From IMG/VR virus record IMGVR_UViG_3300013902_000001, positions 84,000 to 147,999 of that record: a stretch of 64,000 bases of DNA, one strand, 5' to 3'. A model generated the notes under the pieces. It saw only the letters and a list, made by a program, of their open reading frames with translations, had not been told where the DNA came from and did no database searches. Shown one piece after another: positions 1 to 50,590 of this stretch. Both the position numbers and the translations under genes were made by a program. The stretch is from a virus (lineage: Duplodnaviria > Heunggongvirae > Uroviricota > Caudoviricetes). Position 1 is the stretch's first letter; every line of letters begins with the position of its first letter.

Positions 1-1773
1 GGCAAAAGTGTAAAAATTTCCTTTTTATCCCCTAGGATTAACTGTCCAGTCATTCCCTTCTTGTAAACTTTCTTTGCTTTATTAAGAGCATCGGTTAGAA
101 TTTCCTGAACTAAGGTGTCCATAGCTTGGTAATACTGCTTAGTAATCACATAGGACTACTGCATACCCATTTCTACGTTAGCAACAGCATCACGAGCTTC
201 AATCCCACCCAATCGCTCTCGAAATACACCAGTAATAGAACTAGCGGTTTCTTCTACTCGCTAAATAGCCAAATCAATCGCCTGAATGGTATTTACGTTA
301 ATGGAATCATCATAACCATTAAATATAGTATTCATCATTTCTCCCTCCTAAGAAGAATCAAATAATGCCATACCAGTTTTACGATAAGCCATATATTTAG
401 CCAGTCTTTCCTCCAACGAATCCCCTAACACTTCTGGCAAATGAGCAATATCAATATTAGCTCCTTTTGTTCCAGAAAGGGCTATGGCGTTATCCTTGAA
501 GTAAAAAAGGAGGTCGAACTTATCCTACAAAAATGTTGTAGCTAGCATTAACGAATATGGATAATTACCAGTTCCATAATACATTCCATTAATGCTCAAT
601 CTCATCTCATTAGGAGAATCCATATCACGAACAGCACTTTTATCTTCACCCTTTAATACATAAATATCAGATCCGATTCGCACTACTTCGTAACGTTTAC
701 CTACAACTTTGTCTTTCTGCTTTTCGTAATCAATCCACTCAACTTCATAAACTGGAATCAAATCCCATTTATCTCCGTCGAAAAAGTGGCTATCATCGTC
801 GTTATCAAAATAAACTCCGGTATTATGCCACATTCCTGGATTTCTATTAGATTCGCCACATCTAGCAGCCTAATCTGTTAAAAGCCGAAAGTGTCTATTA
901 TTAGAATCGTTTCTGACCTAAGAATCTAAATTATCAATATCTTTCTGGGAAAGATCTTCGCCATACTAGATCATAATCTATTCTACAGTCATCCACTTTC
1001 TAACAACTGATTTATAACCATCTTTCATATATTTGCTTTTAGGATCTTTGTCCACAAATACATTTAATGGGTTATAAACTTCTATTTTAAAATTTGTCCC
1101 AGCACCAGATTCAACTACTTTAAAATAAGCCTAACCAGCAATTAGTAAATCTAAAAGCATTTGCTGAAGCTTATTTTTAAAATCCATCTTCCTGGACTGG
1201 AGGATATACTGAACAATATTTTGTCCAGCGATCTCATAATTAGAAATAAAATCTCGATTAACCGATTCTTCTATATTCTTCAATTCCTTATCTATTATAG
1301 GGTCTTGAAGTTTTTGGTCTTGTGGATTCTTTCTAGCGATAGCGTCTAGAACAGCATTATCGAGAAACTATTTCAAATAATCGTGAGTTTTCTTACTAAC
1401 CTATAACTATTTATCTCGATAGATATTAGTTAAGGTCTTCTCATCTTTACAAGAAATCTTAGGACTGATCTTTGTGGAAAGATACTCCCCTACAATAGCG
1501 TCAATGTGCTTTCTAATTAGAGGCACAAAATCTACTGAGGTGGGATTTCCGATACCGAAATTCTTTTCGAGACTTTCATATTGGAAAACATCACGGATTC
1601 CATTATAGTAATCATAGGCTTTATAGAGAGATTCTTTCTCCCTCACCAAATCCCCTATAATGAAATCTGCGCAATCCATCAAATAATCATTAGACCCCTT
1701 CTTGTAATGATTCACATTCCGATATATACTCATACGGCTAAATGATTAGTTGCTAAAATTTCTAACTTCCTAA

Positions 1774-1986
1774 CTAACTTCGTTTTAATTCCTTAGTCAA
1801 AAACTCGATAAATTCTTCTTCTGAATTACACTGCTTCGCTAAGGTAAATCCTCCGAAGTTAGGATCGTTTATGAATATTTCTAATTTATATAAATCTCCA
1901 GAAATAGTTACTTTTAATTGCCCTATAAATATACAATTATATAACTTTTCTATGAGGTCAGTAATACGTTTTTCGAGACCATCCAT
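1774..1986 (-). CDS. Hypothetical protein; start overlaps the terL stop
   Basis: ATG at 1984-1986. The ORF ends at a TAG and may read on. Confidence 0.3.
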   Translation of the reverse strand: MDGLEKRITDLIEKLYNCIFIGQLKVTISGDLYKLEIFINDPNFGGFTLAKQCNSEEEFIEFLTKELKRS

Positions 1987-4900
1987 AAAGCATAGTTGAA
2001 TTATTTGTCTATTTTACTTCTCCATACTAAACTCGTCCATATTCATCCCTATAATAGCCTACATTACCTAGAAGTTTGACCCGAGATTCTGTTTTAACTA
2101 CTTTGTTAATCATTTCTTCATCTGCTAATAGAGCCATTCCTAAAGCAGCTACATAGTCGAATTTTCTTTTATTGGCATAAGAATACCTGAGTAATTCATC
2201 TATAATAGCTGGAAACTAAATTGTTTCGCAATAATCGGTTATATATTGTTGAATTAAATCGAGTTGATGGTCAATAATAGTCGGTGTTGCAGGAACTCCA
2301 AATTGTTTAAAATTTGTTTTCCCAGAAGAATTGGCGGTCGCCTAAGGACGGTGCATCATATAGGACAAAGCTCCAAATCGCTCAAAATACTATTTAACAC
2401 TAACACGAGTTGCCTCCATTAACATAGGTGCATTATAGAATTTACACAGTTTTAAAGCATTATCATAAGCAGTCTTAACGTCTTTCGGCCGATCCTTGTA
2501 AGTCGCCACTATTTTAGGTTGTTGTAATCCATAGGCTCGTCGAAAAACAACGACAGCAAACTAAGACACATCATCCTGACCAGTTGAGGTTGTACTATCT
2601 CCGTCTATTGAATCGCAGTTATGCGTTGGAATATAATGACACATAAAGGTACTTGTCTCACAGTGATAATTATAAACAATTCCAGTATATTTAGAAACTT
2701 CTATTTCAGAAATCTTAATATAAATATAATTACAGGTTTCATCCTCAAAGAAGCACCTTGGAATTGCATGATCCGTATAAGTTTTATATTCCCATTTATC
2801 CAATTTTAAATCCGGTGCAGAATACATTCTTTTAAATTTATTGATCATATCACCGTGAACATCTAATGTCCATGCTTGATTCACAACACTGAGTCTCTGT
2901 TGACTAGTAATCTGATGAACTTTCTTAGTTGATCTCATCCAATGAACTGTAGAAATAATTCCCAATGAGAAGAGAATATCTTGCATATCCTCTAATAATT
3001 TTAAGGAACAACTTACAGCATTATAAGAATCCCTACTTTTACATAAACAACCGTCAGCGGAAAAATATCCTACAATTAAATTCATTTTTAAATCATTCGG
3101 AAGAAACTTTACCCATTCTGGCAAATTTTTATTTTTTGCTCCAATTCCAAAATTTTCTTTGAAAAAATTCCAAAATTGTTGACAATTAAACAGAACTTCT
3201 GCAGAATTTCCGAGGCCTTTCTGCCTACTTTTTACATGTCTATTTAAAACTTCCGATATAATTCTTTTTGCCTTTTCTATATAAAAAGTTTCGTTTAGAT
3301 TAAATGTAATTCCGACACATCCACAAGGTCGGTTTTTAGTGGGAGTTGCGCACCAACCATCTCCTAAAATTAATCCTACTAACCACCAAAAATCTTTATT
3401 TCCTAATGGATTGCCGACTCTTTGATCTATACGAATATTCGATTCGTCCCATTTTTCCCACGGAATAGGTTTCTCGTGCTTGTAAATATTAGGAACTTTT
3501 ACAAAATCTCCAACTTTTACGTCCTTCATAAGTTTGAATCTAAAATCATATACGTAATATCGTCTATGAAGTCCGTGTTTTTGGGCATAGGCACCTCCAT
3601 GATAATGCTATTTAGGAGTTGCACAATATATAGGATGTTCGCCTGTAAAAGTTGTGGTGCTAAAGATATTATTCAACTTAACTTTGTAGATATTTTCATC
3701 TTCCTTTTGATATTGTTGAAGGTTTATGATATTTACCGGTTTTCCGTTAATTGAATATAATTTATCATCTAATGTTACGTCTTCAACTTTTTTAAGTCCA
3801 TCCTAAGTAAGAACTTTCTCGCCTGGAGTTAAACATCCAACGCAGTATAAATTCTTAAAAGGAACCCCAGCTGAGTCGCATAATGGCAATTCCGCGATTT
3901 CTATCTTTCCGGAACTATCGAACTGAATCATTGGCCTTTGAGTTCGATCACAATTATCTCCGTCCATCGGCCAGATTAATTTAGCCTTTTTAGGTTTTTC
4001 TACGATTTTATGGATTTCTATCGCTGCTAATTGATCTGCTAATTTCTCTCGATCAAATCGATTCTCGCCTTCCATAATAAAGGCATCTTCCGGGGTAAAG
4101 CAATACTCCGACTTTTTAATTAGAAGCGATTGTGGATCGTCTATTTGAGCCCACTGATCAAGATAATACTTTTTAGCACGCTCTTCGTCAACGACTCCCC
4201 TTTCATCAAATCCCACCTCACCATCTTCTCCACCAAACCACATCGAGTAAGATGGAATAAAATAGCCAGTCATTTGTGGTTCGCCATTAGCCATAGAAGT
4301 ATTATAGAAAGGAAGCATCGTATAACCTCTAGGATTATAAAACATCTTTTTCAAACCTTCTACAGCAGGACCCATATCCTGAGACGTTCCGAAAACAAAT
4401 CGATTCCCAACCCTTCGACCAAGAATTCGCACAAGTGCTTCCCCACGCTCATAAGTGGAAATCAAACAAGGGTTGTTACCAGACTCTTCGAAATAGATAT
4501 TTTCAGTACGACCACCACGGAGTTTATCTGGAGTATCGGCAGTAATTCCTTCAACTATAGATTTCTTTCCAGCTTCTACACCGTCCTGATCTACAGTCGA
4601 AGCGACTTTCTTCATTAAAGTATTAGTTTTTTGTTTATGAAGGCCTAACGCACCTTCAGTGCAAGAATCCAGAAAATCAAATTCTTGCCAGACTTTTGAT
4701 AGTGTGTCTTTCACATATTTTTCTAGAAAAGCAGTAACTACATTATTACTCTAATCTATAAAAGTAAAAGCATGAGCACAATTGGAAGCGGCTATCTCAC
4801 TCGCTCCGACTCCACGGCTCTTGAAAGCCAATCCATCATATCCAGCCTTTTTACACATATCTAGATAGTGGAAATACTCATACTATTTATTTACAAATAT

Positions 4901-5476
4901 AGGAAAATCTTCAGCACGCTGAGCTACACTACCTTCAGCTACGATAGGACTTAAAAGCCTATAATAGTTAAGAAAAAAGTAATTTTGCCCAGTAATAGTA
5001 TATTTCCCAACTGTATATCCATAAGTGCATCTTCGGATTTCTTCTGTCCAGTGTTGCTACCATTTATAGGTATCAGGGTAATAATCTGTATATCGGCCAA
5101 ATTTCCTATAATGATCTGCAGCTTCTGTAAAAGCTTTTGGATCGAAATCCAGTCCTTTATCTTTCGTTATAGGGCGATAGCCTGTAAGTTCATAAGATAA
5201 GGAAGGATCAAAATATTTGATTTTTTCAGTTTTAGGAACATCCCATTCCTTTACTGATTGAATGAGCTCTGGTTCTGGTTCTGGAATGGGATTTTTTTCT
5301 GCTTCCAGATACTCAGTCATAGCTTTTAATTCCTCAGCATCTTTTTGTGCTTTGGTTTTAGTTTTTCTAACATAAGCTTTTTTAGGAAGCTTAGAAACCA
5401 TTTGTGCTCGTTCTTCCGCTGTGGGAGCATTAACCCAAGCACTCTTTTCAAAAGATTTACTTTCTTTCTTTTTCAT
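1958..5476 (-). CDS. terL: Terminase large subunit (ATPase plus nuclease) interrupted by an intein. Read through six in-frame TAG codons; ends at TGA 1958-1960
   Basis: ORFs 5057..5476, 3803..4714 and 2561..3529 are in one frame, separated only by TAG. Plus-strand cta triplets sit at 5057, 4883, 4751, 3803, 3608 and 2561. The C-terminal nuclease-like region reads ...IWPMDGDNCDRTQRP...; an ATPase-like stretch FKSRGVGAS lies N-terminal to it. Confidence 0.7.
2615..3835 (-). mobile_element. Intein (about 407 aa) with a LAGLIDADG homing-endonuclease domain, inserted in terL
   Basis: Intein block A follows the extein ...KNLYCVG: CLTPGEKVLT(TAG)DGLKKVEDV. Two LAGLIDADG motifs are present (LVGLILGDGW and IVGYFSADGC). 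The C-terminal end reads ...FMCHYIPTHN followed by the extein Cys (CDSIDGD...). Confidence 0.7.
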
Positions 5477-5679
5477 CGTTCCATTAAGAAGGGTTTCTTA
5501 TCACCTCTCAACCCAGAACTCTCTTCCTGCTCCTCTTTATATTTTCTTTCGAGTGCTTTTAAACCATCTAATGCTTTTTCTATCTATTGCATTTCATTAA
5601 GAAAATCTCGAATTTTAAATACTGGAGCACCAGAATCTAGGCGTTCGTCAAAATCTATACTTTTAACAAACTCTTTCAT

Positions 5680-6054: not shown

Positions 6055-6059
6055 CTCTG

Positions 6060-8267
6060 TTAATCTTTAATATATTGTGTTATTTTTCCACCGTGTTTAA
6101 AGGAATAATTATTTGTTCCAATATAAGGTCCGTAAGTTACCCCTCTATCAAATTCTGGCACAGGAGTGGTAATAGGCTAATATGTAGGGTATTGCAAATT
6201 TTCACCGTGAATTGCCGGTATTAGGGCTGCATCAGGCGCATCCCAATAAACATAACGTGTATATCCAGGACTTCTAAGTTGTCCCTTTTTATGACCTTTG
6301 GTCGGACGTGTGGTAATCGTTTTTTCTCCGGTTTTAGTAAAATTGCCGACATCATTATTGAAAGGGTTTGCTTCTATATATCCAGTATCATATCTGATCG
6401 TTCTCGATTTTTTAGGCCGAACTGTCTTTTTCCAATAAGTTGGTTTTGTACGAGTTCGGTATCTCATCCCAGAGCCCTTAGTAGCAAATCCAAGATAAGT
6501 TTCCGGAGCAAAGGCTGTGTCTAGAACAGTATCTACGAATCCGTTACCAGTAGATCCAGTAACGTCAGTAAAGTAAGTTGGGGCCCCTCCGGAATATCCA
6601 CTTAAAATAGTATTATTCAGTCGATTACTAGTCCAATCACCAAATTTATAAGATCTTTCACCACTTGCCCAATCTCTAATATCTTTTACCGTTCCCCACA
6701 TCAACTCACTCGCTGGAGTTAAAGAATTTATAATGCCGACTCCAGCTTTATTTTCAGCATCTGCTACTTCATTCTAAAATCTTCTAGCTTGAGCTGCTTG
6801 GGAATTAACGCGACCGTTATCAGCAATAACGCCCGCTGCTGACATTGCCTTTTGAGCTTCTGGATCATTAACGAGTTCTTGCATTTCCTATTTTGATAGG
6901 TTGTGATCCTTCATCCACTTATCATATCCATCAGCTTTTAACGCTCCTGAGGCTACAGCATTTTTAAATTCTCGAATTCCCACGGATCTATTATAACTTT
7001 CACCCCGATTTTTAGATACCTCTTGATCGTAGGCATCCCCTTCATCATTCAAAGCTCGAAGTTTAGACGCCACTTCTGGAGAAACATAATTCAAAGCATT
7101 CTAATAATGATTATAATACTAGGGATCAGTAACAGCATTAGAAGCGTTCATTAAATATTTTAACATTTCTGGAGAGTTGTAATATTCACTAGCGCGAGCA
7201 TTTTCTGCAGAACTCACCCCTTGAATTTTACCAGCAGGCTGTTTTCCTTGATACTAACCTTTTCGAGTAGCGGTAAGAGTAGAGTCTCCGAGACCAGTAA
7301 TCCCTAAAGCGGAAGCTGTTTGATCTCCAACCAAACCATCAACTTTTAGAATATCCTTGTGTTGATTTTGGAAATTTTTAATCGCTGCTAATGTTTCTGG
7401 TCCAAATTTACCGTCTTCTGCAATCTGTTTACCTAAAGCCTGTTTATTTAGTGCTTGCTGAATTTGCCTTATTTGATCGGAGGAATATCTTCGATTATGC
7501 CAATAAGAAGCATTAACCCCTCCTTGCTAGAAAAAATTTATTTCTCCGCCTTTCTTTTTTATAGGCAACCCAGTACAACTATCCACTTCCATAATCTTCC
7601 CACCTACTCGAGCCAACTTGCATTTACAAGGTTTGATAGGAAGCCCTCTTTGAGCTTTTTTAGCTTTCTTGGCTTTTCCGCCACATTTCATTTGCTGAGC
7701 ACCTTGCATCATTTGCTGAATAACTTCTGCATATTGTATAGCTTGAGGATCGCCTTGCTAAGCTCTTTTAAGAATTTCTTTAATAGCACTTTGAGCTTGT
7801 GGATTTCCAGTCATGGCGTCTTCTACTAGCGTTTTAATTTCTTCCATAGGATCGGCAGTTACTCCGCCTTCTTGCATATAATCTGTTACCATTTTACCTC
7901 CTGTTTTAAACCAATTCGGGTTAATTGAATGCAGTAAATCTTGAAACCAATTACGATAATCATTGGCCTTAATACCTTCCTCTACGTAACTTCTATAACG
8001 CTTTAGTCTTTCAGGGTTATTTCCAGTTACTTCTACTGTATTTGTTACCGGGTAACCAATCATAGAATTATCCTCTGGTTCAGTCTAAGTTTTATATTTA
8101 TAATGACTATCAGGCCCACTTAAATGAACTTCGTACTCACTAGTACTCCCCCAGGGAGAAGATCCTGTTACTGTAAAAGTTGTATCAGATTTAAGAGTAT
8201 TAGGATCGGTGATTACTTGAGGTTGAGATACCCTACGTCCATCAGATGTCGTTCTAAATTTTGTCAT
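6060..8267 (-). CDS. Virion-associated protein with a peptidoglycan-binding domain, about 735 aa, read through several TAG codons
   Basis: ORFs 8085..8267, 7758..8063, 7527..7712, 6888..7094 and 6177..6704 share one frame and are separated only by TAG. There is a PG_binding_1-like segment: QALGKQIAEDGKFGPETLAAIKNFQNQHKDILKVDGLVGDQTASALGI. The 5' boundary is a TAA at 8283-8285; the 3' boundary is a TAA near 6060. Confidence 0.5.
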
Positions 8268-8487
8268 GCTTCCATCAAATCTTTAGTGTTGAAAACTGCT
8301 TCTTGAATATACCCATCAGTTGTGAACCATCTGCAAACCATCCCTTGAAGGATTTTACCAGGGTTCTTTTCATCGTGAATGGTCATAGATTTCTTACGAT
8401 CTACGATCATAATAGGCTTGTTAGGAATGTCCTACTTTAGTGTTACGAGCATTCCTGGAGTAAAATAGAATTTCTCTTCTGTCATAA

Positions 8488-8820
8488 TTACTTCATTAAT
8501 GTTAAAAGTGAAGGTTCAGCAATAATCCAGTAATACTCGTCTCTGAATTTTACGATCCTGCACGTTCTAACATCGAAGTAACAATCATCCCCAGGGTTAG
8601 CATATTTACAATCTTTTCCGACTTCAATAATCTTACCGCATTTAATAGGATGTTCTTTCTTATCTACTTCTCCGGAATCTGGATTTTCAAATTCACCGTC
8701 TGATACTGTGAATCCCTCCTTAGTTTCTTTTACATCATAGGGATCCTCTTCATACATTTGAACCATTACGTTGTTATACAAAGGTACAATTTCATTTTTT
8801 AAATCATTAGCCATAATCAT
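8488..8820 (-). CDS. GroES-like co-chaperonin (cpn10 or T4 gp31-like)
   Basis: 110 aa. IVPLYNNVMVQ resembles GroES IRPLHDRVIVK; GKIIEVGKD...GDDCYFD...YWIIAEPSLLTLM resembles GEVLAVGNG...VGDIVIF...ILAIV. It lies directly downstream of the groEL homolog and ends in TAA. Confidence 0.5.
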   Translation of the reverse strand: MIMANDLKNEIVPLYNNVMVQMYEEDPYDVKETKEGFTVSDGEFENPDSGEVDKKEHPIKCGKIIEVGKDCKYANPGDDCYFDVRTCRIVKFRDEYYWIIAEPSLLTLMK

Positions 8821-8821
8821 A

Positions 8822-10270
8822 TTATTTTAAAATTAAACAATCACACGTTAAAATTAAACTAGCTGTATTAACAGCATTTAAAAGGGAATGTTCTGTAACT
8901 GCAAAAGGTTCTATAATTCCCATTTCATACAAATCTCCGTATTCTCCGCTTTTAAAGTTATAGCCATTCCAGAAAACATCGTCAGTGTTCAGATCTTTTC
9001 CTTGACTTAAAAGCTTAAATGGAATTTGTAATACATCATACAATTTACCGGAAACAGAACTTGGCACTCTCCGTATACTTCCGGAACCTGGTAAAATACC
9101 ACTTTCCAAAGCTGCTTGAGTGGCCATTACAGAATCTTCCACGCGATCTTTTCTCTCTTTTATTTCAACTTCAGAATATCCTCCAACATAAATAGTGGCA
9201 ATGCCAGAAGTAAAGTTAGCCAATCTTTTCTTGTGAAAATTCATTTCCATTTCAGTAACTTTTCCTTCTTCTATAATGCTTCTAATAGATGTTATTCGAT
9301 TCTTGATCTTTTCAGGATCCCCTTCAGTTCCTATAAAAGTTGTATTATCTTGTGAGATAATTACTTTCCGACAGGTCATTGATTCTCCTAAAAGAATCCT
9401 AAGATCTTCGATAGCAATTTCTCTAAAATTTCTATGTTCAGGACTTTTAACAGTGCACGATTTCAGCTTATCGTTACCTTGCTTATCATATAGATTACGA
9501 GCGAGGTTAAGAATAATTTCAGAATCGAAATCTGGTGCTATTAAAAGTAAAGATTTATCGGCTACCATAGCTCTGCCAGCTATTTCCGAAATCTTTTTGG
9601 TTTCTTCCATTTTAGTATCGGAAATATAAACCATTACATTTTCCAACACACATTGCCCCTTAAAGTTATTAACAAAATAAGGGGAAGAAAATCCACTATC
9701 GATTCTAAATCCTTCAGTATATTCAACTCGATCTGAAACATCTTCAGATTCAACAAACTGAACAATTCCATCTTTTCCAACTTTTGTAAAAGCTTCGGAA
9801 ACTAATTTGCCAATAACAGGATCATTATTAGCCGATAAAGTAGCAACTTTCTATAAATCCTCTGGAGAAGTTACTTCTCTTTTAAAAGTTTTAAGGTAAT
9901 CAATCGTTTTAGAACAATCCTGAGAAAGTTCTCGAGATAGTTCTATAGGATTTTCACAATCCTTAAATTCATTTACTAGTGCTCTAGCGATTACCAAACT
10001 AGTAGTGGAACCATCTCCAATAGTTTGAGCGGTTTTAACTGATATATCCCTCATTACTTCTATACCCATAGAAATATAAGGATCGGGATCATTTACGGCT
10101 GCTGCCACAGTAGCACCATCTTTTGTTATCTTGACCGAGGAAGGATATTTAATACACACATTCTTTCCTTGTGGTCCATACGTTTTTTCGACTGCATCTG
10201 CAATCAAATTTACACCTTCGATCAGCTTTTCTCTAGCATCTTGATCGAATTTTACATTAGCATAATTCAT
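8822..10270 (-). CDS. groEL: GroEL-like chaperonin (Hsp60). It contains one in-frame TAG (9851-9853) and a 60-nt segment (9781-9840) that is out of frame
   Basis: N-terminal MNYANVKFDQDAREKLIEGVNLIADAV...TAQTIGDGSTTSLV resembles GroEL [27 protein letters not shown]...AGDGTTTATVL. The middle KVGKDGIVQFVESEDVSDRVEYTEGFRIDSGFSSPYFVNN resembles [41 protein letters not shown]. The C-terminal ...GILPGSGSIRR...MGIIEPFAVTEHSLLNAVNTASLILTCDCLILK matches the GroEL C-terminus. Ends in TAA. Confidence 0.85.
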
Positions 10271-10467
10271 TCTCCAAATAATTTATTATATTCTTCTTTT
10301 GAGATCCAACGTTCAGTTGAATAAACTCCTAATAATTTCTTGTAATATTCTGGATTATCAGAAGTATTAATTTTATATTGAACCCAAATTCTTTGCTGAT
10401 CAAAATCTATCCATCTTAATCCAGCATCTATTAGTTTTAACATTCTTTCGCAGGTCATATTTCCCAT
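10267..10467 (-). CDS. Hypothetical protein; its TGA stop overlaps the groEL ATG (ATGA)
   Basis: ORF track. The stop, plus-strand tca at 10267-10269, shows TGA working as a true stop in this module. Confidence 0.4.
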   Translation of the reverse strand: MGNMTCERMLKLIDAGLRWIDFDQQRIWVQYKINTSDNPEYYKKLLGVYSTERWISKEEYNKLFGE

Positions 10468-10787: not shown

Positions 10788-10929
10788 TATACAATGATTT
10801 AATAATTGGATCTTTTGCGTGATCGTATTCTATTTGATAGCGTTTACGCTGATCCTCTGATATGCATTGTAGTATAACATATTTAGGAGTTCTTTTCTTC
10901 CGAAAAAGATTTTTAAGAAATTTAATCAT

Positions 10930-12341
10930 TCTTCTTTTGCATTAATAAAGGTAGTGCAAACATTGACGATTCTTTACTCAACCAGTTTGCAGCCTGATCG
11001 TAGTTTTTAATACTTCTAAAAAACTCGGTCATGTTATTATCCCAATTACCATCTTTAATATAATGCTTCTATGCATATTTAAGCATCTCTGGAGTTAATT
11101 TCTAAGTTGACTTTGTAAATCCGTAATAATCCTTTAACTAACTACCCCTAGCGGATAATTCTGTATTATTACCGTGTTCTAAGTAATATTGCATCTCCGG
11201 AGATTCTGCAGAGACATCAAATCCCTTTGCTTTCGTTTTAGGTGTGTGCGCTACATGGTCCATTTCATGAGAAATAACCTATGAATAATTATCCCGTATT
11301 TGAGGCACTTTAGAGTTGTATAATACAATAGGTTCGTTTATAACTCCAGGAGCACTAATTGTATGTGCTCCACCCTCACGAGTTGATGTAATTTCAAGCT
11401 ATTTCTAAAATGCAGCTTTTTGTGCATCGGGTAAGTCAGGACGAGTGGCCTTTATAAATGCATCAAATGACTCTTTATTAGCTATATCATAAGTTTTAGG
11501 TGACTATGTAGATAGCCGTGCTTTATGATATTCCAATGGACTTTTACCAAAATATTTTACCCACTTTGACCGAGCTAAAGGCTTTAATAGTCGGATTCCT
11601 TTCGAAATTCCCTGTATAGCTAAATCAAATGGTCCACTTAAAACAGTTCCTGCTACAACAAATTCTCCAACAGGATCCGTTCCAGACAGTGGTTGATCCT
11701 GCTCATATAATTTCTAAACCTTATCAAAAGCTTCTGGATCTTTAGGCAGTGGCCCAGAAGGATTCTAATATTTCTTTATTTTATTATCAAAAAATTCTAA
11801 GTAATTCATCATTTTATCCTCCAACTAGGCCCAATAACAACTCCCACTCCAATCTCTAATCCGTGATTTACTTGCATAGGATTAGTAGGGGTAGCGTTTA
11901 ATCCGTAACCTATATAAGGACCAACAGTAATATCCCACCCAAACTTTTTAGGCTTCTAAACAATCAACTCATTTTTCTGCAAATAAGAATGATTAAGCCT
12001 AACAGAATCAATATCAGAATTATAGCCATGGAAATTAATCTTTAGAGTTGTTTTGGTAGAATCAGTAGCTATAGTGTCTATATACTCCTTATAATCAATA
12101 GGAATATCTTTTACATAGACGGTATCACCTTTTTCTGTTACATAGACTGTATCAATCCGATCAATATACTTGATCTTAGTCTTTTCTTTAATAACTTCCT
12201 AGTCGATAAAAACAGTGTCGTGAACCTAGATATATTCTATATTAGATCCAGGTTTATTACAAGCAGGAATATTTACTAAAATCCCAATTCCAAACCCTAT
12301 AAATAGAATTAAGATATATTTCCAAATCTTTTTAAAATCCA
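10930..12341 (-). CDS. Membrane-anchored protein with an HExxH metallopeptidase-like motif, TAG-interrupted; possibly a lysis or peptidase function
   Basis: The reverse complement of about 12339 reads MDFKKIWKYILILFIGFGIGILV (N-terminal TM segment). The reverse complement near 11230-11270 reads ISHEMDHVAHTP (HExxH). No ORF of at least 60 aa appears in the track because TAGs break it up. Confidence 0.35.
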
Positions 12342-13184
12342 TTAGTATTCTATTTGTTTGCACTTATCTAATTCTCGTCTAAGTTTAAGATGCTTAACGT
12401 GATATTTTATCAACATTTCAGCTTCATCGGAAAGATATTCCACTGGAAATTCTTTCTTCTTCTTAAGATCCTTAACCTGAACTATTACAAGGCTTTTAAT
12501 AATAAAATCTGGATTAAGAGATTCAATCATTTTCGCGTATAAAGACAATTGCAACTAATATCGAATTCCGTCGCAGTCATCTAATTTATTAAGCGGAAAT
12601 TTCATTCTCTTAGTCTTTTTCTTTCCCACTTCAAACATAGACCGGAATTTAATCGAATCGTTCGTTTTCCAATCTATTATAGTGATTTCATTACCATCTT
12701 TTATTACTAAATCGGGAATCCCTACTAAAGTAAATTCCTCGTCTATAGGCAATTCTATTCTAAATTCTGGGAAAATTCCCTTTTCTGTATTTAGAAAGTT
12801 TTCTATTTTTTGCACCTAATAAAGATCGGTATCTACTCCTAGATTTTTAATTCCTTTTAAATCAGTGCAAAACATATTATGGATAGTTTCGTGAGTTGAA
12901 GTTCCTATCGATTTAGCTTCTTCGTTCTTTTGCTTCCATTCTGCCTATAATAGATTTCGCTCAGTTTCAAATAAAACAGGATCAGGGATAAATCTTTTAT
13001 CGATTCTTTTAGATCTTAGAAGAACCATTTTTATAGAATCAAAATCCGGATGGATTTTCTCCAAAGTTTTATAAGAAAGCCAAAACTCAGAATCGAAGTT
13101 ATGGTAATCATTTAGAATTTGAGTTACGCTCAATTTTTCCATACACATGTATTCATTTATCATGCAAAGATAGATAAAATTCAA
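12342..13184 (-). CDS. PD-(D/E)XK-family nuclease-like protein (Cas4/RecB-like fold), TAG-interrupted
   Basis: ORFs 12555..12815 and 12342..12554 are adjacent codons in the same frame, separated by TAG. Motif: GIPDLVIKDGNEITIIDWKTN (D...E.K). 12945..13184 probably forms the N-terminal part. Confidence 0.4.
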
Positions 13185-13287
13185 CTTTTAAAAAATAAAA
13201 AATCGTAAGATCCCAATTAGGAACCTTACGATTAGTTTATTTCTATTACAAATCCCACACCACTGCGGGATAATAGAATAAATCAAA

Positions 13288-13521
13288 TTACTTTTTAACA
13301 GCTTGTTTCTTAGGTTTCTCCAAAAGCTGCTTCAAATGCCATTCTACGAGCTTAATAATTTCAGGACTGTAATTATCCTTATTCTCCATCATTTGAATCA
13401 GCTTACCCCATTGCTCACCCAGTTTATCAGCACGAAGTGCTTGGTATTCAGCTTGTAATTGTTGTGCTTGCTGAAGAAGCTGATCATAAGCTTCTTTTAA
13501 CTTGTCATAATCATTTTCCAT
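13288..13521 (-). CDS. Small coiled-coil protein
   Basis: Q/E/K-rich heptad-like sequence, 77 aa. Confidence 0.3.
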   Translation of the reverse strand: MENDYDKLKEAYDQLLQQAQQLQAEYQALRADKLGEQWGKLIQMMENKDNYSPEIIKLVEWHLKQLLEKPKKQAVKK

Positions 13522-13900
13522 AAGTCTATTTTATTTTATTAAATTGCTCTATTGGATCGATTTCTGGAGATAATTTTTTTAACTCCTCAAAAAATCTTTC
13601 ATTATACTAACTCTTTTTTGCCCCTAGATGTGTAAATCCGATTTCCAGTGCATATTGATTACATTCTTCGTTTATTCTAGGAACTAAAGTCTAAATTGAA
13701 TAATCTTTTACTATCTGAGTAAGATGCCATTGTTCTAAAATAATATCAGGCCAAAGTTCACCGAAATTCATATTCTAGCAAATATCTACATTGCGCTTGT
13801 AAAGATTTATATATTTATCTTTTAATTCCTGATTATTAAATCGCATTACGCTGGTATTATACCACCCTTCGATATTTTCTTGAATTTGTGGTTGAATTTC

Positions 13901-14236
13901 CTAGATTTTTCTTACGGTTTCTATCAGTCTTATATTCTTATCAAATCGATTTAATAATTCTTCGTCTTCATAAAGCGCTGTTAAAACATCAGCCTGACAT
14001 TTTTCTACTTCTGCATAAACTCTTCCTTTTTTAAAAAACGCGTCCCCGTCGATTAAAATATCTCCTAGATTCATTTTTTCCAACGCTATAAATTTCATAC
14101 TGGCGGCAAAGTGATAATTATTAGTAATAGTGTTTTTAGATACGATAACTTCGTCATACGGGACGTGTGATAAAATTTCAGCTCCTAGTGGGTCAGTTAC
14201 CAAATAAATTTTATATCCGTTATTTTTTACTAACAT
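13901..14236 (-). CDS. Hypothetical protein
   Basis: ORF track, 111 aa, ends at TAG. Confidence 0.3.
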   Translation of the reverse strand: MLVKNNGYKIYLVTDPLGAEILSHVPYDEVIVSKNTITNNYHFAASMKFIALEKMNLGDILIDGDAFFKKGRVYAEVEKCQADVLTALYEDEELLNRFDKNIRLIETVRKI

Positions 14237-14337
14237 CGCCGAATACGCATAATCTAAAAGTAAAGTAGCTAGTGACGTATCGAACTAATCGAACTTATTG
14301 CATAATAATGGAGCACTCCAAAAGGAATGATAAAAAT

Positions 14338-14754
14338 TCATTTAACTTTATAATTGTTTATACAAACATGTTTACTACTTGAAGGGTCATAGCTAATATG
14401 CAACCAGATAGACCCACGACTATTAGATTCGAAAAGACATTCCGAAAATTTACCCAATCGTTTTGCGATATCAAATATTTCTTTTGTCTTAGCATTAGTG
14501 TCCCCTATAATATCGGCAGCACAGCCTCTAAGATGAAACGAGTTAGGCTAACCTCCTACTTCTTTATTGAGTTTAGAACACCGATAACCGCTTGTAACAG
14601 TTATCGGCTTACCAAACTCTTCTCTTATAGGATCTAGAACTTCATTAATTAAACGTTCTAGATTAACCTTTACTTCCTCTGAGGGAGTATTGTCGATTTT
14701 CTTTTTAGAGGCTACAGAAGACTTGCACAACTCATTAATCGTGAAGTACTTCAT
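14338..14754 (-). CDS. Peptidase M15-family (VanY / L-Ala-D-Glu peptidase-like) endolysin, with one in-frame TAG
   Basis: MKYFTINELCKSS...ITVTSGYRCSKLNKEVGG(TAG)PNSFHLRGCAADIIGD... matches the M15 signature (SGYR...SxHxxGxAxD). Ends at TGA 14338-14340. Confidence 0.6.
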
Positions 14755-15124
14755 CTTTCTTTTTCTTATTATACTTACGCTTAGGCTTTTTAACTGGTTC
14801 TGGAGCTGCTTCTACTTTTACTAGGTTAAGCAACGGAAGAACCTTATCAGCAACAGCCTTAAGTTTCTTAAGAACCTCATCAAACTTCCCTATAGGAAAA
14901 GCTTTTACCAAATCATCTTTCAAACTATCCAACTCTTTAATCTTACCATTAAGGGTGTTAAGAGTGGCCTTAAGTTTCAATTTAGTTTCATCGAGCTCAT
15001 TCATAAGATCGATATTCTTTTTACGAAGCTTATCCACGTATTCTGCATAAATAGCTTCGTATATAGCTTCTTTAAGCCATTTGCAGTTGAGCAACTGCTT
15101 TACAATCCATTTTTTCAATTTCAT
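14735..15124 (-). CDS. Coiled-coil protein
   Basis: K/L/E-rich, 129 aa. Confidence 0.3.
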   Translation of the reverse strand: MKLKKWIVKQLLNCKWLKEAIYEAIYAEYVDKLRKKNIDLMNELDETKLKLKATLNTLNGKIKELDSLKDDLVKAFPIGKFDEVLKKLKAVADKVLPLLNLVKVEAAPEPVKKPKRKYNKKKKDEVLHD

Positions 15125-15279
15125 ATATTAATTATAATTAATTTCGGACTGAGTAGGAGTTTATGCGATCTAAAAAATTAAGCACTTCTTGCTCATCTTG
15201 TAATCCTTCAGATACTATATAACTCCATATATCTTCCAATTCATTTATGGAAGAGTCTAGTTTCTTTTGTAAGGTTTCG

Positions 15280-15618
15280 TCAATCATAAATCCCGTAACG
15301 CCTTTTTAAATCATTAAGATCTTTCTCATTATAAGCTGATAAAACTGTATTTACATTCAGCCTATATTTATAAGGAGCTTCTCGAACATAAGGTTGGTCG
15401 CTCACTATCTTCTCTTTAGTTTCAATCCCCTTAATCTTATTTTCTAATTTTTTTAACTCCTTTTCTACTAATCGAAAATCTTCTGGGATGGGATTTAGAT
15501 ATTCCACCTTATAATTAGTAGGAGTATTCTTAGCAACCCATTTCTTTACTTTTGTAGTACGGGTAATTTTATCACCCTGGATTATTACTCCAGGTAAATC
15601 TTTTAATTCATTAGTCAT
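15280..15618 (-). CDS. Hypothetical protein
   Basis: ORF track, 112 aa. Confidence 0.3.
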   Translation of the reverse strand: MTNELKDLPGVIIQGDKITRTTKVKKWVAKNTPTNYKVEYLNPIPEDFRLVEKELKKLENKIKGIETKEKIVSDQPYVREAPYKYRLNVNTVLSAYNEKDLNDLKRRYGIYD

Positions 15619-15634
15619 AAGTCATTGATTATTA

Positions 15635-15934
15635 GTTGCTTCGCCTGGATTCGAACCAGGACTCCAAGTTTTCTTCACCACTCTATATTACTATAGCCAT
15701 TTCTGTTGTGGTCCGGACTTTGTCTTCACCTTACTTTTACAAGCTTAGGTGTCTCGTATAAAGTCTCTACACTCGGCTTAATAGCCTAGCTCGGCGTTGT
15801 CCCTAAGGAGTTTCACCGACTTAGCGAGATTTACATCTGAAAGTTTCCTACCAGAGCTCCTGTCTGTAACTTACTGAAAATCAAGTAGTTACAAGGAAGA
15901 GACTTGTTTGCTAACCCTTACAATTCACGAAGCA
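15635..15934 (-). tRNA. Candidate amber-suppressor tRNA (anticodon CUA) interrupted by a group I-like intron of about 225 nt. By plus-strand coordinates the exons are 15898-15934 and 15635-15672
   Basis: Minus-strand 3' end: T-arm CCTGG-TTCGAAT-CCAGG, then acceptor CGAAGCA plus A. The exactly complementary 5' acceptor strand TGCTTCG lies 300 nt upstream (plus-strand cgaagca at 15928-15934). Anticodon stem CAAGT/ACTTG. 5' loop part CUCU, 3' loop part AAA. Only the split CUCU|...G|AAA satisfies the group I rule (exon ends in U, intron ends in G), giving loop CU-CUA-AA. A GGAG candidate internal guide sits about 40 nt into the intron. U1:A72 is a Gln-like feature. Confidence 0.5.
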
Positions 15935-16026
15935 GTAAAAATCCTCCCGTGTTTCACAACATGAGGAGGAAAATCATTTATATGAAAAAATAATAATTCA
16001 TCAACCCACAGTAGGTTCGTTGCATA

Positions 16027-16284
16027 TTATGTATTCGTCAAAATCTTCTTCAAATCTTCTTCTGTAAATTTTCCTTTATGAGTTGCTATTCTTCTTCCTG
16101 ATTCCGATAATACTAAGAAAGCAGGAGGATTACCATAAACATTATAATCAGACATAACATCTGGATCTTCATCACAATCGAATATCTCGTAATCGAGACT
16201 ATTCTCAGAACAAAATCTTTGAATCAGATCCTTCATAGATTTACTATATCTGGAGCAACACGTGTGGAAATAAATTATTTTCAT
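16027..16284 (-). CDS. Small thioredoxin/glutaredoxin-like protein, tentative
   Basis: 85 aa, N-terminal HTCCSRY. Weak. Confidence 0.25.
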   Translation of the reverse strand: MKIIYFHTCCSRYSKSMKDLIQRFCSENSLDYEIFDCDEDPDVMSDYNVYGNPPAFLVLSESGRRIATHKGKFTEEDLKKILTNT

Positions 16285-16943
16285 TTGAACTTTACAGTCA
16301 ATTTATTATCCTTAATTTCAATCCTAACGTTTTCATCAGAATGCCAGATAGCACTAGTAACTTCAGTAAGAATCGGAGTTGGAAGTTCTATAGTTTCCTT
16401 TTCGCGAAGTTCTTCTATACAAGCTTCTATAACAGAATCTTTAATAGCATCAAGCAAATCCCCACTCATTTCGTCAGAATCCTCATAATCATCAGCTTCA
16501 TCAATTATATCCATTATAGGCGTATAATCAGTAACCATTTTCAGATAATATTCCAACCAGATATGTTCATTCTCAGGAATTTCATTAAGCAGTGTGGCCA
16601 GTAATTGAGCTTTGAACTTAGGATCCTCATCCTCTTCTGGAGTTTCGTCAGATTTAATTTCTCGTTCAACGTCGTTAAGAATACACTTCAGCGTAATTGC
16701 TACCAAAGGAAGGAGATCTCGATGTTTCTTACTAGCGAGCTCAGCGTCATAAACATCCTCAGTTTGTGTGCAGTAAGCACTAATCAATTTAGTAATTTTA
16801 CGAAGCGTAAAATATTCAGATTCATTCATTCCGAGATACTCAGAAATAAACTTTCTCCAACCCAGTTTCTTAAGCAAATTCTTTTCGGTTTCGGTAAGAT
16901 CTCTCAAAAGATCTTTTTCCAAAAGCATTAATTCATCATTCAT
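16281..16943 (-). CDS. Acidic hypothetical protein
   Basis: 220 aa, D/E-rich. Confidence 0.35.
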   Translation of the reverse strand: MNDELMLLEKDLLRDLTETEKNLLKKLGWRKFISEYLGMNESEYFTLRKITKLISAYCTQTEDVYDAELASKKHRDLLPLVAITLKCILNDVEREIKSDETPEEDEDPKFKAQLLATLLNEIPENEHIWLEYYLKMVTDYTPIMDIIDEADDYEDSDEMSGDLLDAIKDSVIEACIEELREKETIELPTPILTEVTSAIWHSDENVRIEIKDNKLTVKFK

Positions 16944-17281
16944 TGTAAAAATAATTTAAAAGTTTTTCAAATTCGTTAATTTCCTCATCAGTTTGAGTGT
17001 TTTCAGCTATATGTCTCTTAAGAGCTTTCCACTTTCTCATAACCTTCTTTTGAATCCCTTGTTGTATGAACTAATAACTCAGTTCGTCAGGAATTTCAAT
17101 ATCATCTATTTCATTTAAATAATCATTATCCATATTTCTCTTAATTTGACAATGCAAAGTTACTGCTTTTTCAGCAGTTAAAAAATCGAGATATATGGAA
17201 TTTATAAAATCAAATAAAATCCCACCTCATTTCGATAGAAATAATAAAAGCGAGCCTTCTAATAAGAAAACTCGCTTTAAC

Positions 17282-18390
17282 TTAAACTTGCCAAAATTTA
17301 TAAGCATTTTTATCTCTACCAACGTGATAGTGAGCACCAGTTCCTCCAGTTCTAGCTAACATCTCTTTAGAAGTTTCATCCAAAACTCCTAATTTATGTG
17401 ATTTCATAAAATTAGCTATTTCGGGAGTGTTTCTAATTATATCAGCTATCTCTTGGAAAGTATGTCCTTCAGTAGGAACAATATCCATAGCTTCTCCACT
17501 AGCGTGAAAGGAAGGAGATCCATTAGAAGTAACAGCACCTTCCCTATATCCGCTTGTAATAGTTATAGGAAGATTGTATTTAGTAAAAAGATTTTGAAGA
17601 TCAACCAAATCTTGGTGCATCTTTCCTGATGATTTACTAATAGGAGTTCCGAGTAATGTATATCCAGAAAAATCCTAATCTTTAGGAGTTACCGTGGAAG
17701 TAATAGTTAGTTTCTCAGGTTCACTATAATTAGAAACAAAATCCCATAACCTCGTTATCGGGGTAGAATCGTCAGACTTTACTTTAGTAGCTTGCATAAA
17801 AACTCGTCCACCAGTCTAATGTTTAAAATGCCTTGCGTTCTCAGCAAAAGTGGCTCTTTTTCTCGTAGTAGGATTAGAAGAATGTTTTCCTTTCTAAATA
17901 CACTCCTCAGTCACCTTACCTCCACAAAATTCGGTAAATTTCCCCCTATTCTTCTTTTTAATGTGGATACCACTTCCGTTTTTGAAAAAATCTATATATC
18001 CCCCATTTTTAAAAGACTATCCTGCAGCGTCAAAAGCACTAGAACCTAGAGTAGTCGCACCCGCTGCTTTATACCATCGTCTCGCCTAATCGGCACTCTT
18101 TGCAGCTTCCTGCGCTTTTGCTGCTGACATGTTAAATAAAGTTGTTGGAATTTCCGCAGAAGCTTTATTAGCAGCAGCTGCTTGCTGTGCAAATTCAGAA
18201 GCTTTAGAAGCTTCTTGCTTAGCTTTTGCTTCGCCTTCAGCACGACGATTTTGTTCACGAGCATTTATCTCAGGATCATTACCAGCAATAGCTTTATGAT
18301 AATTATTAGCATCAGAACCAGTATCCTAAAATACAACACCACTACCTTGAGCTAGTTTTCTCTCTACCTCCTCTAGCTATTCAACAGTCA
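17282..18390 (-). CDS. Structural (probably tail-associated) protein with a C-terminal peptidase M15 domain, TAG-interrupted
   Basis: The C-terminal domain reads ITITSGYREGAVTSNGSPSFHASGEAMDI (M15 signature). Upstream in-frame segments are joined through TAGs back to an ATG near 18388-18390. Confidence 0.45.
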
Positions 18391-18883
18391 TTCCCTTCTT
18401 TTTAGCCTCTTCTGCTCTAGGATGGACAATCGGTTCAAAAACCACTGGAGCATAAGAATGAATAGTACTACTAGGTAAGGACTACATTAAAGTAAGATAA
18501 TTTATATCACCTTCTGCATTTACCACCATGATTAATTTTATACCATTTAATAATTATACAAATACACAGGAATAATCCTGCAATTAACGCTATCCACCTA
18601 AGTGGAGTTAGTAAAATACCTAAACCGATAGCTTTCTATAAATCCATCAGTAAGGTTACTATAATAGTATACCAAATACACGATTTGTGTAATGGACACA
18701 TATCAAATAAAATAGAACTAGTAATCAGTAAAGATCCTCCTAAGAAAGAAGAATCTACTAAATACTAAGTAAAAGGAATATTTATTCCGTGTAATAAGAA
18801 AGCTACATGAGTAGTAAGTAATATAACAAAGACCGGGGGAAGATATTGAAATAACTTAATAAAAGCTTGTTTGTGAGTGTCTT

Positions 18884-19700
18884 TCATTTCTTGAAGAAAT
18901 CTAAATAGTTGAGAGTTCCGTCTTCTTTTAAGAAATTATTAAGATAGTTTAATAGACTTTCTCTGTCGTAATATTCTATTAGATCATTTATATTTGGATC
19001 AGTTCGATATAAACTAGGATTCGTTTCGAATTCTTCTAAAAGTTGTTTATAAGGTTTATTAGTAGTTTGATGTAATCTACGAAGAGACATCGCTCTAGCG
19101 CGAAGTTCTGAAGGATCTGAATAATACTAGTTAACCCCATCTTTTGTTTTTACTGGAAATTTTTGATTAAATTGCGTAATGAAAGTATTAACATTGTCTG
19201 AAGCTTGACCTCCAGCACGAACTTGTTTGTGAAACATTAACTTTCGAAGCTCCTCCTGATTTATAACATTTTGGTCAATCAATGCTTTGACAACATCGTC
19301 GTTTAGTCGTATTTCAGGTTTGGTTTGCGAAATTTTTCTCCATGTTTCTTTAGGAATTCCCCAATACTGCTTTACATACTATTCAGGGGTAATATTGATA
19401 TTATTAGCTTTTAAATAATGTTTGACCCAGTTTTCCCATTCCGAGAAAGTGCACCAATAGTTAGTTCCTGGAATTTGGTAACTATTGATTGTGCTCATCA
19501 TTGAACTTATAGGATTATTTGGAGGGAGTTCCGCAATTATACTTTTATTTGCTTCCTGTAATTGAGATTTTGATAATATTTGCGCAGTAGATTCAGGAAA
19601 CTATTTTCTAAGAGCTTCTTGATATTCTGCATCTTTAATTGTTCTTTCAAACCTTTTAGTTCCCTACTGTAAAAATTCATCACCTGTAAACAGTTTCTTC
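18884..19700 (-). CDS. Hypothetical late protein, TAG-interrupted; ends at TGA 18884-18886
   Basis: The C-terminal ORF 18884..19090 and upstream same-direction segments are joined through TAGs. Boundaries are approximate. Confidence 0.3.
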
Positions 19701-20229
19701 GGTTTTGGTCCCGACATTGTGAGCCCGGACTAAGTCATTACTGATCCAGATGCTATAGGTTTTCCTGAAGTACTTGTCCACACTTTAATAAGAGGCTTAG
19801 AAGTTCCAGCGAAAGGTGCTAATCCTACAGCCGCCATTAAAGCGTGTCCGAGAACTTGTAATCCAGTTCCAATGGATCTTCTATAATCTTTTTCTTTTAT
19901 GTATCCTTGTAATCTATTAATTTTTCTGCTCCAGCTGTCAGTTCTTCTTGTGTTAAGACACCTGGTAATGAATATTTAACAAAATCCTTAGCAAAGTTTC
20001 CAACTGGCTCTGGAATTGACTCTACGATAGTTTTTGTTCCAGGGTTTTGTTCTATTATTGGAATTTCTTCTGGCATAAATCTAAATAATTTGGTTTTACA
20101 AACTAAGTCAAATCCCACTTAGGAACCAGTTTTTGTCTAACAGTCTAACCCCAGGCAGTCCCCGGATTGTTAAACTATGTATTAAAGTTAGAATACTAAG
20201 ACTATTTAGAATAAACAGTATTATTATGT

Positions 20230-20693
20230 TTAGGATCGTATACTCCTAATAACATAGCAGCTCTACGTTGTTTACGGTCTTTTACTCCACCTTCTGCTGA
20301 GTCTATATCTAATTCCTTTATAATAGACTCTGCTTCTTTGAGAGTAAGTCTATTATCAGCATAAGCGTCTTGAAGAGCTTTAGTAAACTTGGGGCTTTTA
20401 GCAAAAGCACCTTGACCTCCTCGATAGAGTTGGTCTATAAGAGCATATTTAGTCTACTCAGGAAGAGAATCGTAATTTGGGAAGTACTGTCGAATATATT
20501 TTTCCTTTTTATTAATATAAGCCGGAATGAGTTTTACAGCTTCTTGCTCAGTAATGGTAGAATCTGCTTTTACTGGAGTTCCGTCTGGCATTGTGTCGGA
20601 ACCATATCCTATTGAATAATGGTCAACATCCCAGTAGGCTTTTGGCTTGAAGCCTTCATACTATTTTAATAAATCTATAAACCAATCTTGCAT
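20230..20693 (-). CDS. GH24 (T4 e-like) lysozyme, with in-frame TAGs
   Basis: The reverse complement reads MQDWFIDLLK(TAG)YEGFKPKAYWDVDHYSIGYGSDTMPDGT..., which resembles the GH24 lysozyme N-terminus (EG.r..aY.D..G..TiGyG). No ORF appears in the track because of TAGs. Confidence 0.5.
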
Positions 20694-20958
20694 ATACACT
20701 ATTTTTTGCAAAAATACTAAAAACTTTTAATAGAAAAAAGGAGAAAAGGTAAATGCTAAGATATGCGAATAAACTTAAGATAGAGATTATAAAAAAATTT
20801 ATACCAGGGAGGTCATTTAGAATACCCCCGGTATCTTAATATGAGAGTGGTGGGGGAGGGGAAGGTATCACCTTTCCGACCCCCGGAGTCCGCTTGGGCG
20901 GAAATCAAATTTGAAATCCGCTTCGCGAATTTAAATTTGAAAATTAAAATTTCTCACT

Positions 20959-50587: not shown

Positions 50588-50590
50588 CTT

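Follow-up and report, generated by a model that had tools for sequence, protein, structure and literature searches.

How a stop codon comes to be read as sense in one part of a phage genome, and by which decoder, is the question raised by a stretch of 64,000 nucleotides of a Caudoviricetes genome (IMG/VR record IMGVR_UViG_3300013902_000001, positions 84,000 to 147,999; G+C content 32.8%), referred to here as the window. The minus strand of positions 1-20726 carries a late module of packaging, chaperonin and lysis genes, which are read with TAG as sense and end at TAA or TGA, and the plus strand of the remainder carries the early genes. Within the late module lies a predicted amber suppressor gene, tRNA(CUA), whose anticodon appears to be split by a group I intron. 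Taken together, the evidence makes it highly probable that the window belongs to a crAss-like phage that translates its late genes with code 15 (TAG as glutamine, Gln), supplies its own decoder in the form of this intron-split tRNA(CUA) and keeps its early genes in the standard code.

TAG as a Sense Codon in the Late Module

The coding density of the minus strand at 1-20726 depends on how TAG is read. In a greedy gene call it amounts to 51% under the standard code and 88% when TAG is sense, compared with 58% when TGA and 59% when TAA is taken as sense instead. With TAG as sense, the stop-to-stop open reading frames (ORFs) tile this strand almost without gaps, whereas the standard code breaks it into short fragments. 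The 17 late genes (5879 codons) contain 81 in-frame TAGs and not a single TAA or TGA; the other frames of the same DNA hold 583 TAA and 345 TGA in 12126 triplets. The initial annotation had proposed that TAG is sense throughout this module and that TAA and TGA remain stops, which these counts confirm. TAG makes up 31% of the Gln-type codons of the late genes (81 TAG, 48 CAG, 130 CAA). Its density peaks in the lysozyme gene (7 of 212 codons) and in the gene at 10922-11812 (9 of 296), and is lowest in GroEL (1 of 482).

Family matches obtained with TAG masked as X extend across the TAG sites of the portal protein, the large terminase (TerL), GroEL, the lysozyme, the M15 peptidase, the peptidoglycan-binding protein and the PD-(D/E)XK nuclease, and the ends of TerL and GroEL coincide with those of their homologs. 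The single TAG of GroEL (9851-9853), already noticed in the initial annotation, lies within a continuous alignment to the GroELs of PDB that is ungapped over this codon. ORF boundaries at 6177, 6888, 7527, 7758, 8085 and 12555, which had been suspected of being false stops, correspond exactly to in-frame TAGs. The true ends proposed for four genes hold as well: TGA at 1958 for TerL, TGA at 14338 for the M15 peptidase, TAA at 8822 for GroEL and, for the gene preceding it, the TGA at 10267-10269 that overlaps the GroEL ATG. That TerL is read through its TAGs also stands, but the six that had been counted become 11, nine in the extein and two in the intein. Called genes of relatives in public assemblies hold the same in-frame TAGs, and public gene calls for this genome's own contigs contain in-frame TAGs that make them untranslatable under the standard code.

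A late-gene reassignment of TAG of the crAss-like type, as initially suggested, is supported by these shared in-frame TAGs and by the crAss-like matches of TerL and portal. Since late-gene TAG-to-Gln recoding is established for crAss-like phages and public gene calls already hold in-frame TAGs, the recoding described here is a further instance of a known phenomenon. For annotation, it means that the late region needs to be translated with code 15.

The Amino Acid Inserted at TAG

In an alignment of the portal protein with 120 homologs, Gln occupies four of the 12 TAG columns in 117-120 sequences; the remaining ones are variable and show Gln alongside Glu, Lys and Ser. The TerL alignment places one of the nine extein TAGs on a column (198) that is Gln in 97 of 97 homologs. 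In neither alignment does a TAG coincide with an invariant column of any other residue. Because some database proteins themselves carry a translation of TAG as Gln, codons were also compared directly. The counterparts of window TAGs are 18 TAG, 12 CAA/CAG and 3 other codons in a relative with 90% nucleotide identity (L001), 5 TAG, 12 CAA/CAG and 6 other codons in L028, and 3 TAG, 11 CAA/CAG and 13 other codons in L027. Among near-identical strains, all three polymorphisms at TAG codons are exchanges between TAG and CAG or CAA. CAA lies two substitutions away from TAG, and its frequency therefore reflects synonymy and not mutational proximity.

The reciprocal comparison gives matching results. 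Both TAGs of the L002 portal gene align with Gln codons of the window, and TAGs of relatives coincide with window Gln codons, one of them at a site where all 120 sequences have Gln. L027 likewise has a TAG on an invariant-Gln column. The position of TAG on invariant-Gln columns and its exchange with CAA and CAG in relatives and strains thus argue that TAG encodes Gln in the late genes. Gln had been named as the usual case in the initial annotation, which holds; the accompanying statement that the amino acid cannot be read from the sequence does not.

A Predicted Amber Suppressor Gene with a Group I Intron

The putative decoder is a tRNA(CUA) gene at 15635-15934 on the minus strand, which ARAGORN reports only when introns are allowed and which occupies the one larger stretch of the late module without coding sequence. 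A 5′ exon of 37 nt (15898-15934) and a 3′ exon of 38 nt (15635-15672) are separated by an intron of 225 nt (15673-15897), placed between U35 and A36. At the predicted joint, the 5′ exon ends in GUCUCU and is continued by AAAACUUGG. In the ARAGORN model the joined exons form a cloverleaf with a 7-nt anticodon loop, CUCUAAA, in which the insertion separates CUCU from AAA; CCA is not encoded. Default ARAGORN together with an Rfam scan of the window at gathering thresholds yields a tRNA-Glu and a transfer-messenger RNA (tmRNA) alone and no suppressor, because the intron interrupts the anticodon. The initial annotation had listed intron-split tRNAs among the features of this DNA; this stands, although it had not identified that one of them is the amber suppressor itself.

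The assignment of the intron to group I relies on several features. The Rfam model RF00028 matches it over its full length with 42.5 bits (E 1.7e-9 in a local search; gathering score 50), and matches the intron of the corresponding gene in L027 with 46.6 bits, also over the full-length model (E 8e-11 in a local search; same gathering score). In the consensus fold of both, P1 pairs exon GUCUCU with intron GGAG(CU) and places a U-G wobble at the splice site, which is a hallmark of group I P1 helices. U is the final base of the 5′ exon and G that of the intron, which terminates in GUGAAG. Between the window and L027, six compensatory pair changes in the exons preserve the acceptor and T stems across the intron, the core of which is conserved, and across six independent assemblies the gene is 99.3-100% identical. 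These features indicate that a tRNA(CUA) gene with a group I intron is present in the late module, from which self-splicing and charging with Gln would be expected. A scan for sigma-70 promoters performed at chance level (38 found, 37.7 expected) and is therefore uninformative on transcription of the tRNA. In the literature searched, the coverage of which was incomplete, no account of a suppressor tRNA interrupted by a group I intron was found.

Suppressors and Introns in Relatives

In L027, the TerL of which is 63% identical to that of the window, a syntenic tRNA(CUA) at 2098-2411 contains a homologous intron of 221 nt at the same position. Two more distant relatives that are also TAG-recoded, L029 and L031, have TerL sequences of 55-57% identity that contain 14 and 18 TAGs; in both, a tRNA(CUA) without an intron occupies the syntenic site upstream of the M15 peptidase. 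The gene is hence found at the same place in four lineages (the window, L027, L029 and L031). Because the distant relatives hold the intronless form in this place, the suppressor in the late module is taken as ancestral to this lineage and the intron as a later acquisition. The suppressors of L027 (2098-2411) and L031 (4163-4255) have a long, class-II-like variable arm, which those of the window and L029 lack, and L027 and L029 share an acceptor stem, though only L027 has the intron.

A scan with the intron core located a tRNA(CUA) interrupted by a member of this intron family in a third lineage (3300045988_085724 in IMG/VR and ULRB01095163.1), so that the family is found in the suppressors of at least three separate phage lineages: the clade of the window, L027 and L032/L035. 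In the last of these, the intron-split tRNA(CUA) (L032, 2978-3240, minus strand; L035, 2858-3120, minus strand) adjoins genes for tRNA-Ile and tRNA-Val on a 97-kb IMG/VR and a 93-kb metagenome contig, and the local 10 kb around it appears to be standard-coded. Other searches of IMG/VR returned little. The M15 peptidase retrieved 16 loci, none with a suppressor nearby, but this kind of retrieval is uninformative since the endolysin is too promiscuous as a marker. An exact scan for the 3′ exon gave no match, and a scan with a GroEL profile yielded just two loci, both distant and lacking tRNAs.

Layout of the Two Codes

On the plus strand from 20.7 to 64 kb, the standard code gives a coding density of 81%, which reading TAG as sense raises only to 84%. 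The first stops of 58 plus-strand ORFs are TGA in 27, TAA in 23 and TAG in 8. Seven of these eight TAGs are followed by TAA or TGA within the next 1-15 codons; early genes would therefore be workable with or without suppression, which would add a short tail. That early genes stop at TAG at all argues for a host in which this codon terminates translation. Apart from two endonuclease ORFs, the plus-strand module can be read in the standard code. One encodes a LAGLIDADG homing endonuclease (41837-42577, plus strand) with three in-frame TAGs, one of which is spanned by its Pfam LAGLIDADG_3 match (residues 146-204). The other is endonuclease-like (49886-50932, plus strand; weak DUF7487 match), has two in-frame TAGs and lies inside an intein-interrupted RNA-ligase-like gene, its flanking ORFs matching the PHA02142 OB-fold and the C-terminal end of an intein splicing domain. 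Both parallel a recoded intron endonuclease reported previously (10.1101/2021.08.26.457843). The earlier view of the plus strand as almost entirely standard-coded thus agrees with its density, but has to be qualified for the eight ORFs that stop first at TAG and for the two endonucleases.

The late module has an exception of the opposite kind. Five small genes around the suppressor (14735-16943, minus strand; 597 codons) contain nine Gln-type codons and no TAG, and could therefore be translated before suppression sets in. In L027 the equivalent comprises seven flanking genes with 20 CAA/CAG and no TAG (P about 8e-4). The TAG-free stretch of the window would be a standard-code island, expressible ahead of the recoded genes. 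Neither release factor nor aminoacyl-tRNA synthetase genes were found among the genes of the 64-kb window.

Proposed Model and Its Alternatives

According to the proposed model, the early plus-strand genes would be expressed under the standard code of the host, avoiding internal TAG and ending occasionally in a TAG whose suppression would add only a short tail. Decoding would fall to the phage tRNA(CUA), the gene of which lies on the late strand, flanked by lysis genes on one side and chaperonin genes on the other. The 225-nt group I intron would excise itself from the anticodon (between CU and A) before the tRNA folds, after which CCA would be added and the spliced tRNA would be charged, presumably by an enzyme of the host. 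The five TAG-free genes around it would be translated ahead of suppression. Mature suppressor tRNA would then accumulate and outcompete release factor 1 (RF1), so that the TAG-rich virion, packaging and, above all, lysis genes would be translated in full length.

Several observations weigh against this model. Splicing and Gln charging are deduced from sequence, both group I matches lie under the Rfam gathering score, and the D arm of the tRNA is irregular. A hairpin rich in G+C and followed by a T run, resembling a terminator, is located a few bases 5′ of the tRNA gene (15941-15975, minus strand), and a similar one is present in L027 (2073-2097). The TAG-free island of the window contains just nine Gln-type codons (P about 0.03). 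The spacing between early TAGs and the stop that follows falls only marginally below the expectation for this AT-rich composition, and the idea of tandem backup stops behind them is for this reason not pressed. Finally, about 108 kb of the genome lie beyond the window and could hold another suppressor, release factor 2 (RF2) or an aminoacyl-tRNA synthetase. The acceptor stem also departs in part from expectation. The identity elements of E. coli glutaminyl-tRNA synthetase are a weak or unpaired 1:72 pair, U35, G2-C71, G3-C70 and G73; the tRNA(CUA) of the window has U1-A72, U35 and G2-C71, but C3-G70 and A73 in place of the E. coli elements. In the host, Gln-tRNA may be formed either by GlnRS or through GatCAB. 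The suppressors of relatives have U1.U72 or U1.G72.

These points bear unequally on the other explanations. Phage inteins and introns do fragment genes, and the interrupted frames might stem from gene decay, misassembly, introns or frameshifts, with no change of code; yet frames are broken by TAG only, 81 times, and never by TAA or TGA, the TAGs are conserved among independent assemblies, and homolog alignments, that of GroEL included, run collinear and ungapped over them, so that this explanation is refuted and retains a negligible probability. A sense codon for another amino acid (Tyr, Leu, Ser, Glu, Lys or pyrrolysine) is very improbable. It could draw on the absence of G73 and G3-C70 from the window tRNA, on the long variable arms of the L027 and L031 suppressors, which recall bacterial Leu, Ser and Tyr tRNAs, on the homolog columns in which Glu or Lys dominates and on the label "Pyl" (pyrrolysine) that ARAGORN gives by convention to the anticodon CUA. 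However, the columns dominated by Glu or Lys vary, are of surface type and include Gln as well, and every invariant TAG column is Gln. CAA/CAG also accounts for 12 of the 15 non-TAG counterparts in L001, 12 of the 18 in L028 and all three strain changes, and no genes for pyrrolysine synthesis were seen in the window. Pyrrolysine, Tyr, Leu and Ser are rejected on the invariant-Gln columns and the codon exchanges.

Somewhat less remote, but still unlikely, is that the intron-split tRNA(CUA) is a decayed relic and that suppression is provided by the host or by a second suppressor encoded outside the window. The window covers just 64 of about 172 kb, the D arm and the group I scores noted above would suit a relic, and recoded phages in which no suppressor is detectable have been published (PMC7886860; PMC12386605). 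By contrast, the near-identity of the gene in six assemblies, the six compensatory exon changes between the window and L027 around a conserved intron core, and the shared syntenic place in four lineages speak against a relic, and the TAG stops of early genes argue against a host in which TAG is sense. An intron-split, phage-encoded suppressor that reads TAG as Gln therefore remains the preferred explanation.

Genes of the Late Module

The portal gene (1-1733, minus strand; PHROG 6547, E 6e-36, residues 11-560) is present with its N-terminal 577 aa, continues beyond the window and has 12 in-frame TAGs. In L001 (10001-13333; 95% identical) the portal gene call consists of two parts, of 404 and 343 aa, with a DUF723 ORF of endonuclease type between them, which suggests a mobile-element insertion without counterpart in the window. 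TerL (1958-5476, minus strand; 1172 aa, PHROG 6681, E 7e-63) ends in TGA and includes a LAGLIDADG intein of 406 aa (residues 548-953, 2618-3835; Pfam LAGLIDADG_3), which holds the two intein TAGs. The intein junctions read CVG/C...HN/C and predict an extein of 766 aa. Public data contain both alleles, one with the intein (P0121; 1172 aa, 99% identity) and one free of it (P0122) that has exactly 766 aa and is 97% identical.

The remaining genes of the module are also on the minus strand. A 735-aa protein with a peptidoglycan-binding domain (6060-8267; Pfam PG_binding_1, E 2e-10) has nine in-frame TAGs. The GroEL-like chaperonin (8822-10270; 482 aa, PHROG 5725, E 4e-106) is flanked by a candidate GroES-like gene of 110 aa (8488-8820) and by the 66-aa gene whose TGA overlaps its ATG (10267-10467). 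Pfam Cpn10 does not match the GroES-like candidate, and only its L029 homolog has a faint match. This chaperonin neighborhood has one TAG in 658 codons, compared with the TAG-rich remainder of the module. Beyond the gene at 10922-11812 follow a PD-(D/E)XK nuclease (12342-13163), its family match extending across a TAG, and a DUF6734 protein (13511-14341; family match). Lysis functions are represented by the M15 peptidase (14338-14754; Pfam Peptidase_M15_3, E 6.5e-19) with one TAG, by a 415-aa protein with a C-terminal M15 peptidase domain and eight TAGs (17282-18529; Pfam match), and by the phage lysozyme (20055-20693; Pfam Phage_lysozyme, E 2.9e-10), the most densely recoded gene of the module.

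Other Features of the Window

Between the modules, the switch region (20727-23400) has an odd composition, long ORFs on both strands at 20931-21510, a TAG-free RepL-like gene (22209-22658, minus strand) and several terminator-like hairpins on both strands. Further RNA genes lie on the plus strand. A tRNA-Leu(UAA) at 26652-26995 is interrupted between U34 and A35, where tRNA-Leu introns classically lie, by an insert of 256 nt. This insert gave no match to the group I model of Rfam and only a weak one to LOOT RNA (26848-26967, 29.5 bits). ARAGORN reports a tRNA-Arg(CCU) at 33150-33291 with a 67-nt anticodon-loop insert, which is too short for a group I intron. A weak tRNA-like match at 37381-37434 was absent on repeat local search and was discarded.

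The tmRNA gene (35493-35849) scores 49.8 bits against a gathering threshold of 47 in Rfam and was missed by ARAGORN; its apparent tag frame, GCA GAU AGC UAC AAA GCU UUC CGU GCU GCU GCU UAA, reads ADSYKAFRAAA. A ClpP protease gene is found on the same strand (45589-46164). One may speculate that phage tmRNA and ClpP handle the products of TAG suppression past host stops. An RNA-repair-like cluster (48864-54117, plus strand) comprises the RNA-ligase-like gene with the PHA02142 OB-fold, which is interrupted by an intein with the TAG-bearing endonuclease-like ORF in its middle and, downstream, two metallophosphoesterases and a polynucleotide kinase-phosphatase (53191-54114).

Lineage and Relation to Known Systems

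A 172,287-bp contig contains a locus 100% identical to the window over the approximately 16.7 kb compared. Among the matches listed in tblastn searches with TerL and portal, crAss-like phages reach 20-29% identity and unannotated gut records named "Bacteriophage sp." 38-47%; megablast of 1-20700 against annotated phages gave no match. Mobile or intervening elements in the window include the TerL intein, the RNA-ligase intein, the group I intron and a LAGLIDADG endonuclease; the crAss-type RNA polymerase block is absent from these 64 kb. The genome is probably that of a crAss-like phage of about 172 kb belonging to the Zeta group, because its size, its introns and inteins and its amber suppression fit this group (PMC7886860; PMC12386605), the genomes of which measure 145-192 kb and are rich in introns and inteins (PMC7886860). 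It shares with the Zeta group a deep-branching crAss-like TerL and portal, many introns, inteins and homing endonucleases, amber suppression as found in some clades, and TAG stops of non-recoded genes that are soon backed by another stop. Unlike in the Zeta-group papers, where the suppressor was undetectable in some recoded genomes, the suppressor of the window was found once introns were allowed.

Late-gene recoding of TAG or TGA, together with suppressor tRNAs, has been described for crAss-like phages (PMC7886860), and proteomic proof of code 15 in them is reported in PMC9523058. In a current model, recoding exerts translational control over late and lysis genes (10.1101/2021.08.26.457843). 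As in the code-15 phages of these studies (Yutin et al. 2021, PMC7886860; Borges et al., 10.1101/2021.08.26.457843; Peters et al. 2022, PMC9523058), TAG in the window is mostly confined to structural, packaging and lysis genes, with early and replication genes in the standard code; a tRNA(CUA) is encoded by the phage, and lysis genes are among the most recoded. A TerL with both an intein and TAGs is likewise shown in Fig. 7b of PMC7886860. Unlike in those phages, however, the suppressor of the window is split by a group I intron, is located in a TAG-free island of the late module instead of an early tRNA block, and is accompanied in the window by neither a release factor nor a synthetase. The Jade phages offer another parallel, with a "code-change module" of suppressor tRNA, tryptophanyl-tRNA synthetase (TrpRS) and RF1 kept in the standard code upstream of the lysis cassette (10.1101/2021.08.26.457843). 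The suppressor of the window also adjoins lysis genes within a stretch without recoded codons, but the Jade module concerns TGA and Trp and includes TrpRS and RF1, whereas here TAG and Gln are concerned and the tRNA stands without synthetase or release factor.

A second comparison is that with bacterial group I introns in tRNA anticodon loops (review PMC3984707). Like these, the intron of the window measures about 220 nt, lacks an ORF, lies in the anticodon loop, pairs an exon U with a G of P1 and ends in G. Bacterial examples are the introns of cyanobacterial and plastid tRNA-Leu(UAA), Azoarcus tRNA-Ile and Agrobacterium tRNA-Arg, and the core of the window intron may resemble the Azoarcus type. 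It differs in its host gene, a phage amber suppressor, and in its insertion between positions 35 and 36, where P1 pairs with the first two bases of the amber anticodon itself (CUCU).

Implications for Recoded Phages

A good share of recoded genomes have no detectable suppressor, and host suppressors or aberrant tRNAs have been the subject of speculation (PMC7886860; 10.1101/2021.08.26.457843; PMC12386605). The results obtained here raise the possibility, put forward tentatively and at slightly less than an even chance, that group I introns in the anticodon hide the suppressors of some recoded phages, may delay the code switch and may home to suppressor genes. If true, this would explain part of the mismatch between clear TAG recoding and an undetected suppressor tRNA. 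The guide sequence of the intron pairs with the amber anticodon loop, and the intron may therefore home specifically to suppressors. In practical terms, default tRNA finders gave one tRNA and no suppressor, and allowing introns exposed the decoder; an intron-aware rescan would be a cheap and direct test of the gap left by undetected suppressors in recoded phages. Ribozyme splicing and the standard-code island could add a delay or checkpoint to the code switch that releases late and lysis proteins and, if splicing is rate-limiting, would place a ribozyme step within a genetic-code switch during infection.

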